A DNA stretch of 19,760 nucleotides from a virus (taxonomy: Duplodnaviria; Heunggongvirae; Uroviricota; Caudoviricetes), in the IMG/VR virus record IMGVR_UViG_2740892274_000002; one strand, 5' to 3'. Both the position numbers and the translations under genes were made by a program. Below, one piece after another: positions 18,802 to 19,503 of the stretch. The notes beneath the pieces are model-generated. The model saw only the letters and a program-made list of their open reading frames with translations, searched no databases and was not told the DNA's origin. The first letter of the stretch is position 1. The number at the start of each line of letters is the position of its first letter.

Positions 18802-19035
18802 ATGTCAACGAAGAACAGAACCCGCAGAACAACAACCCGCAACATCCGCTTTCCTAACCAAATGATTGAACAAATTAACATCGCTCTTGTTCAAAAAGGG
18901 TCCGGGAATTTCTCAGCCTGGGTCATTGAAGCCTGCCGCCGGAGACTGTGCTCAGAAAAAAGAGTTTCGCCTGAAGCAAACAAAGAAAAGAGTGACATTA
19001 CTGAATTGCTCAGAAAACAGGTTAGACCAGATTGA
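18802..19035 (+). CDS. Small basic protein with predicted ribbon-helix-helix DNA-binding fold; possibly YlcI/DUF3950-like
   Basis: 77-aa ORF MSTKNRTRRTTTRNIRFPNQMIEQINIALVQKGSGNFSAWVIEACRRRL. Basic N-tail, short beta-strand (NIRF), helix, G-x-N-x-S turn, second helix. Transcribed away from cos and antisense to the late operon. The family assignment is from memory only. Confidence 0.6.
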   Translation: MSTKNRTRRTTTRNIRFPNQMIEQINIALVQKGSGNFSAWVIEACRRRLCSEKRVSPEANKEKSDITELLRKQVRPD

Positions 19036-19050
19036 AGCAATTTAGATAAT
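19022..19050 (+). promoter_or_regulatory. Candidate sigma70 promoter for the downstream 136-aa gene (-35 TTAGAC, 17-bp spacer, -10 GATAAT)
   Basis: TTAGAC at 19022-19027 and GATAAT at 19045-19050, about 40 nt upstream of the ATG at 19093; the -35 overlaps the last codons of the RHH ORF. Sequence match only. Confidence 0.25.
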
Positions 19051-19092
19051 CGTGCAGACTACGCCCCCTCATATCACATGGAAGGTACTACA

Positions 19093-19503
19093 ATGGCTCA
19101 GGTTGCCATTTTTAAACAAATATTCGATAAAGTGCGAAATAATTTAAACTATCACTGGTTTTATTCTGAACTAAAACGTCACAATGTCTCACATTACATT
19201 TACTATTTAGCCACAGAGAATATTCATCTTGTTCTTGAAAACGATAATACGGTTTTAATAAAAGGACAGGGTAAGGTTGTAAATGTAAGATTTTCAAAAA
19301 ATAAATGCCTTATAGAAGCCACCTTAAAAGGATTCAAATCAGGAGAGTTATCATTTTACGAATACAGGAAAAATCTTGCTACAGCAGGGGTTTTCAGATG
19401 GATTACAAATATCCACGAAAACAAAAGGTATTACTATACCTTTGATAATTCATTACTCTTTACTGAGAACATACAGAACACTACACAAATATTTCCGCAC
19501 TAA
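19093..19503 (+). CDS. Hypothetical AT-rich moron protein, 136 aa (possibly a YbcV/DUF1398-like prophage protein)
   Basis: [48 protein letters not shown]. Start chosen at the ATG at 19093 because GGAAGG lies 8-9 nt upstream; the ORF-track start at 19078 adds 5 codons. GC is about 31-35% against about 55% for the structural genes. Same strand as the RHH gene, 57 nt downstream of it. Confidence 0.6.

Follow-up and report, generated by a model that had tools for sequence, protein, structure and literature searches.

Genes homologous to the pair considered here have been described in phage lambda and in the cryptic prophages DLP12 and Qin of Escherichia coli K-12. The ybcV gene of DLP12 is under a PdhR-dependent control region of its own, shared with ybcW, and its expression is 10-fold lower in a pdhR mutant; ydfO is induced ~100-fold by an ionic liquid. 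Over-expression of YbcV in K-12 is reported to alter glycogen content and that of YdfO to raise oxidative-stress resistance, neither being lethal, and lambda p78 is non-essential for lytic growth. The present analysis concerns the window, the whole 19,760-nucleotide stretch of IMG/VR virus record IMGVR_UViG_2740892274_000002 (Caudoviricetes), at positions 18,802–19,503 of which a gene of the ylcI/ynfO type is followed by one of the ybcV/ydfO type. An initial annotation, made from the sequence alone, had likened these to YlcI (DUF3950) and YbcV (DUF1398), found between bor and cos in lambdoid prophages, and rightly so; expression outside lytic growth, which it had also anticipated, is documented for the K-12 homologues in cryptic prophages. 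Both genes are thus already known: they are annotated in RefSeq, one family has a solved structure, and of the 5,426 complete E. coli genomes searched, most carry at least one of the two. We conclude that the locus probably consists of two independent, catalogued lambdoid accessory genes in a Qin-type arrangement, YlcI being a ribbon-helix-helix (RHH)-like DNA binder and YbcV optional cargo.

The product of the first gene matched Pfam DUF3950 (PF13132; 72.8 bits against a cut-off of 25, E = 2e-20), NCBIfam YlcI_YnfO_N (NF041551; 35.2 bits against a cut-off of 30) and phrog_949, and near-identical copies are named "YlcI/YnfO family protein" in RefSeq. V30E is its sole difference from the Qin-type YnfO (sequence taken from P0014), and the lambda product is 94.5% identical to it over the first 55 residues. 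The lambda homologue (J02459 48139–48303, complement; 1903–2097 in locus L001) carries no annotated feature in J02459. The product of the second gene matched Pfam DUF1398 (PF07166) over model positions 1–119 of 119 (147 bits against a cut-off of 22, E = 3e-43); it shares 77% identity over residues 1–135 (E = 2.9e-67) with PDB entry 2HH8, the structure of E. coli YdfO solved by nuclear magnetic resonance without an assigned function, and 76% identity with lambda p78. RefSeq, which names near-identical copies "DUF1398 domain-containing protein," calls the 136-amino acid form, and a ribosome-binding site, GGAAGG, lies at 19080–19085, 7 nt before the ATG at 19093. For ybcV, the ratio of nonsynonymous to synonymous differences per site (pN/pS) was 0.37 when the window was compared with lambda. 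Family hidden Markov model matches and pN/pS values argue that both open reading frames, which were found right of cos on the plus strand with the ends and sizes that the initial annotation had given, are genuine genes and not chance frames.

The pair is not a unit. The initial annotation had likened its layout to that of toxin-antitoxin (TA), defense or regulatory modules, a reading that the comparative counts did not bear out: YlcI is far commoner, and in many cases it occupies this position by itself. In the 5,426 genomes, the ylcI 5′ segment was found at 9,549 places (4,184 genomes) and ybcV at 3,860 (3,020 genomes), ylcI-like DNA being ~2.5 times as frequent as ybcV-like DNA. YlcI was likewise present in 155 of 50,697 phage records and YbcV in 43. 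In Shiga toxin (Stx)-converting phages and related drafts, YlcI occurs alone, divergent from an HNH endonuclease/TerS/TerL module and with no DUF1398 gene after it; a Nu1-type locus with YlcI alone was found too. Distant DUF1398 loci (n = 20; Kluyvera, Klebsiella, Salmonella (diarizonae), Raoultella and Pseudocitrobacter), all chromosomal, had no YlcI homologue within 4 kb in any of the 20 cases, and most of these distant genes have a lower guanine-plus-cytosine (GC) content than their surroundings. A further K-12 DUF1398 homologue, ycgX, lies outside the DLP12 and Qin prophages. The pairing of the two genes is non-obligate, which favors their independence.

It is accordingly very improbable that the pair is a type II TA system or a two-gene anti-phage module in which YlcI, as antitoxin and autorepressor, neutralizes a toxin YbcV via its C-terminal tail. 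The TA-like layout stands as far as gene order and sizes go, and as regards a conserved N-terminal domain with a variable C-terminal tail, but the partner is dispensable, unlinked, apparently not toxic and without a match to any toxin family. Co-occurrence fails both ways, with solo YlcI and solo DUF1398 genes; in lambda and DLP12 an oppositely oriented gene lies between the two, and ybcV has its own regulatory region; and clones over-expressing YbcV or YdfO grow, with mild phenotypes. Conserved positions of DUF1398 are mainly aromatic, hydrophobic or glycine and make up no obvious catalytic set. The initial annotation had recognized no PIN, RelE or ParE motif in the second protein, and no Pfam toxin family was found for 13 diverse DUF1398 members. 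In PADLOC-DB v2, YlcI had no hit, and YbcV had only Csx23 (E = 0.023, 12.7 bits), which is at chance level and not a credible match. On comparative grounds, a TA or defense reading is not supported and can be set aside. A single fusion protein, made by read-through of an in-frame TGA, is scarcely credible. The two genes do share a frame here with a single TGA between them, and a 233-amino acid "fusion" protein with 761 member sequences is present in the protein database; however, the database fusions hold the TGA, which is not translatable under the bacterial code, and a shared frame is expected by chance in about 1 in 6 cases (an estimate). The shared frame is a chance feature because it is not kept in the L195 allele, where the genes lie in different frames (2208 versus 2504). 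The database DUF3950+DUF1398 "fusions" (P0014 and P0010; loci L004–L007), which come from short AT-rich contigs, were rejected as gene-calling artifacts because the DNA has a TGA stop and the fusion arises only if this TGA is read as Trp.

The AT-rich character of ybcV was confirmed. The drop in GC content reported in the initial annotation is genuine, with values of 0.314 for ybcV and 0.444 for ylcI against 0.527 for Nu1 and 0.541 for A; 69% of ybcV third codon positions are A or T. Separate acquisition of this gene, as proposed there, fits its composition and its patchy presence: moron-type deviant composition and presence/absence polymorphism were found for ybcV and not for ylcI. The ybcV allele is present at ≥99% identity in 1,063 complete E. 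coli genomes and is 100% identical in phages PhiR49_1, Kati and Chlobot, which are active phages that carry the cassette. Scans of viral contigs returned near-identical copies only and added no diversity. Searching 1.84 billion cluster representatives with the single YbcV sequence yielded 189 clusters, many of them fragments, and full-length DUF1398 relatives reach down to ~25% identity; a profile of the 13 diverse members detected 2HH8 and DUF1398 alone when compared with PDB and Pfam. YbcV is soluble and basic (isoelectric point (pI) 9.4), with 16% aromatic residues and no hydrophobic segment or signal peptide. A possible internal duplication is hinted at by the weak alignment of its N-terminal and C-terminal halves (P = 0.0036) and by a predicted secondary structure in which one helix and then three strands occur twice.

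Two observations touch on the database records of these families. Two labels have been propagated to DUF1398 proteins, "head protein" in phrog_413 and in RefSeq phage records, and "putative envelope protein" for lambda p78; they are unsupported because YbcV has neither signal peptide nor hydrophobic segment and its gene is antisense to the late operon. Separately, the lambda ylcI-ybcW-ybcV segment is carried by error-laden ~3.5-kb ENA contigs, by OR974317–OR974325, by Campylobacter phage CJLB-4, and by Staphylococcus, Bacillus and spider entries. All of these look like lambda control DNA or contamination, and they make the family seem larger and its host range wider; Oxford Nanopore uses a 3.6-kb amplicon from this lambda end as its control strand.

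The contents of the slot behind YlcI vary: ybcV in the window; ybcW, ybcV and bor in lambda; and elsewhere no gene on the plus strand. The ybcW gene (2262–2468 in the lambda locus L001) is absent from the spacer between ylcI and ybcV in the window. According to a 2026 preprint, the Vulcan NADase defense is triggered by lambda p79 (ybcW), and Vulcan-escaping lambda deletes p79, probably by recombination with Qin. If loss of p79 does arise via Qin recombination, the juxtaposition of ylcI and ybcV in the window would correspond to the "escape" genotype. Between the lysis genes and the ylcI slot, the closest relatives and Stx phages have a KilA-N domain gene and a small hypothetical gene in late orientation. 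Lambda has bor there, in the opposite orientation, marking another variable cargo position at the junction.

In all contexts read, YlcI occupies the junction of lysis and packaging genes, on the strand antisense to the late operon and beside either of two packaging modules, Nu1/A or HNH-TerS-TerL; the same position was found in lambda, PhiR49_1, Stx phages and draft genomes. Residues 1–50 are conserved and very basic (pI 11.8), and residues 51–77 form a hypervariable, allele-specific tail. Only the first ~50 codons are shared between lambda-type and Stx-type ylcI, and the flanks are unrelated. Over these first 50 codons, pS is 0.5–0.67, pN is 0.05–0.09 and pN/pS is 0.09–0.17; the high pS together with the low pN/pS therefore points to selection on the plus-strand frame of ylcI. 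The tail past residue ~50 varies with the downstream sequence, and the family models therefore span the N-terminus only; the tail simply reflects the location of a mosaic breakpoint. Judged by these alignments, YlcI, and not the pair, is the constant element at the junction and is under strong purifying selection.

Whether this conserved domain belongs to the RHH class, as the initial annotation had suggested, was examined by profile alignment and structure modeling. Using hhalign, the YlcI profile aligned to eight RHH proteins (reference sequences entered by hand) with a score of 21.2 (P = 3.7e-4) and with strand, helix A and glycine turn in the expected register; all of 30 column-shuffled controls scored lower (5.2–12.2). 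With Arc as the only reference, the register was the same and P was 0.021; single-sequence alignments to Mnt and CopG were not significant. The AlphaFold2 monomer (predicted local distance difference test score, 68.6) has an extended N-terminus followed by helices at residues 19–32 and 34–53. The suggestion was thus favored by the profile alignment, the basic pI and the AlphaFold2 helices. Against it, no Pfam RHH family was matched at E values up to 10, Foldseek comparison of the model with PDB gave no match, and sequence and profile searches of PDB with YlcI returned nothing relevant. An RHH fold that binds DNA is plausible, and moderately supported, for the N-terminal domain of YlcI.

Other roles for ylcI were weighed against the same data. 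Homology between the lambda and Stx types starts exactly at the ATG and stops near codon 50, like a mosaic joint, which would suit a first 150 bp acting as a DNA-level recombination linker, or as an element of the antisense late transcript, and not as a functional protein. That is highly improbable given pS of 0.5–0.67 with the protein nearly unchanged (pN/pS about 0.1), and an Rfam scan found no family in the ylcI region, with only chance microRNA-like hits near Nu1. The main alternative, although unlikely, is that YlcI serves the packaging module by binding DNA at cos, close to it, or where the terminase operon starts, for instance repressing or insulating the packaging genes in the lysogen or hindering the packaging of other phages, with YbcV as unrelated cargo. 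YlcI does stand directly beside the first packaging gene in all contexts read, across two modules; it is listed among the accessory genes of capsid-forming phage-inducible chromosomal islands, which have their own terminase; and its domain is under strong purifying selection while the surroundings change. However, neither cos nor the sequence upstream is related between the two module types, no motif being shared above chance, and the position may merely mark a permissive boundary where recombination retains a conserved gene; nor would YlcI be co-expressed with terminase, because its gene is antisense to the late operon. It is more doubtful still that YlcI is a conserved junction regulator and not cargo, that is, a prophage-made RHH protein whose target is common to phages with different packaging modules and which controls access to, or transcription of, the packaging operon, the slot behind it being a cargo hotspot shaped by defenses such as Vulcan. 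Were this true, the packaging operon could be kept silent in the lysogen, or packaging by superinfecting relatives or satellites could be hindered.

The explanation that we favor is therefore that of two independent accessory genes, and it would work as follows. The N-terminal 50 residues of YlcI would fold as an RHH dimer and bind DNA, making YlcI a putative transcription regulator in the lysogen, produced from the prophage strand and fixed at the lysis/packaging junction whichever packaging module follows. YbcV would be independently acquired AT-rich cargo, placed in the slot behind YlcI; it is predicted to be a soluble, non-enzymatic protein with a YdfO-like fold that works by binding rather than catalysis, and its K-12 homologues respond to stress and to host regulators. 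Several results weigh against this explanation. The two genes are 57 bp apart on one strand, making co-transcription possible in this allele. A consensus scan of the region for promoters and terminators found no more sites than in shuffled sequence, and it found no convincing plus-strand sigma-70 promoter for ylcI; a weak promoter-like site (9/12 matches) at 19023–19050 overlaps the spacer between ylcI and ybcV. Across the unrelated flanks of ylcI alleles, three nine-mers were shared where 4.5 ± 2.9 were expected, giving no operator-like motif. Autoregulation or local regulation by ylcI is unproven because there is neither a shared operator motif nor a clear promoter. The YbcV structure model was too poor for fold comparison. 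No functional study of either protein came up in literature searches on DUF1398, DUF3950, ylcI, ynfO, ybcV, ydfO and lambdap78/79, and the main text of Wang et al. (2010) mentions neither gene. YlcI would be a better "y-ome" target for assigning function than ybcV or the pair, because it is constant at the junction with two packaging modules and under strong purifying selection; the slot adjoining it is reported to hold the trigger of an NADase defense (lambda p79).

The window is a lambda-like prophage segment whose late genes lie on the minus strand, running from gpJ through tail and head genes to terminase A, Nu1 and cos (Table 1). As the initial annotation had stated, the pair points away from cos and is antisense to the late operon, because Nu1, terminase A and the lysis genes of near-identical prophages are all on the minus strand. 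Its view that accessory cargo is confined to this place in the window is essentially correct. Apparent low-GC islands at 1.2–1.8 kb and 2.4–3.0 kb were rejected, being runs of N (1229–1492 and 2599–2813) inside gpJ, the tail-tip gene; these mimic low GC and split J into spurious open reading frames. The insertion sequence (IS) end that closes the window, the terminal repeat of an element that we take to be IS2, does not belong to the prophage. It matches thousands of places, including plasmids, and the junction is shared by one of the 5,426 genomes (NZ_AP027599), where it is annotated as an IS3-family transposase.

Table 1. Features at the packaging end of the window and in related loci; positions refer to the window unless a locus is named
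Feature	Position	Strand	Basis
Terminase A	15968–17893	−	Open reading frame coordinates
Nu1, terminase small subunit; opens the packaging operon and diverges from ylcI	17868–18413	−	Pfam Phage_Nu1, E = 2.4e-101
cos-containing intergenic region	18414–18801		Alignment with lambda and two relatives
cosN cohesive-end position	18591–18602	−	Alignment with lambda, PhiR49_1 and strain IH5
ynfO/ylcI-type gene, 77 amino acids	18802–19035	+	Pfam DUF3950, NCBIfam YlcI_YnfO_N, phrog_949
Spacer between ylcI and ybcV, 57 bp	19036–19092	+	Sequence
ybcV/ydfO-type gene, 136 amino acids (alternative ATG at 19078 gives 141 amino acids)	19093–19503	+	Pfam DUF1398, PDB 2HH8 match
End of an IS3-family insertion sequence, 168 bp past the ybcV stop codon	19672–19760		Prophage homology ends at 19671
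KilA-N gene and small gene stretch	L003 4693–5474; L009 4391–5142; L189 3691–4442	Late orientation	Locus comparison

The cos region itself was well conserved, with an average identity of 98% to lambda and two relatives across the intergenic stretch. Within it, the minus strand of cosN reads GGGCGGAAGGCG, against GGGCGGCGACCT in lambda; a 6-bp block differs, and the surrounding cos is almost identical. The exact variant was found in 13 of the loci retrieved, from E. coli strain 582 and several IMG/VR contigs, compared with ~139 of the lambda type. It is a natural minority sticky-end allele and not an error, because it recurs in these 13 loci. A 13-nt inverted repeat (18700–18712/18720–18732) lies upstream of ylcI. 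On the ylcI side of cosN, ~40 bp away, is a perfect palindrome at 18638–18667, ATGATAAT-A-ATTATCAT, which is kept in the aligned relatives apart from a single mismatch in lambda. Overlapping it is the region's best promoter-like match, GTGACA-16-TATCAT (10/12), which lies on the minus strand and is directed toward cos and Nu1.

Among described proteins, the Arc/Mnt/AmrZ-type RHH repressors (phage P22 immI region) resemble YlcI in being small with a basic N-terminal arm, and in an "N-[IL]-R-[FW]-P" strand motif followed by helix A, a glycine turn and helix B; unlike them, YlcI has no Pfam RHH match, and neither an operator nor a regulated target is known or was found for it. At the level of gene arrangement, DLP12 (ylcI-ybcW-ybcV-borD) and lambda (the unannotated frame at 48139–48303, p79, p78 and bor) likewise carry both families between cos and the lysis genes, with both genes antisense to the late operon. 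They differ from the window in having ~560 bp extra, with ybcW (p79) in late orientation between ylcI and ybcV, and a shorter YlcI (64 amino acids) with a different tail. In lambda, bor lies downstream of ybcV; in the window, the IS element and the window end intervene. Compared with the Qin prophage of E. coli K-12, where ynfO-ydfO lies next to nohA/nohQ, the ybcV allele of the window is a distinct lineage, 76–77% identical to YdfO and lambda p78, and the cassette adjoins an intact-looking Nu1/A module, with the IS element downstream. The Qin pair, with a YnfO of 77 amino acids, is nevertheless like that of the window in gene order, orientation and spacing, and it too lacks ybcW.

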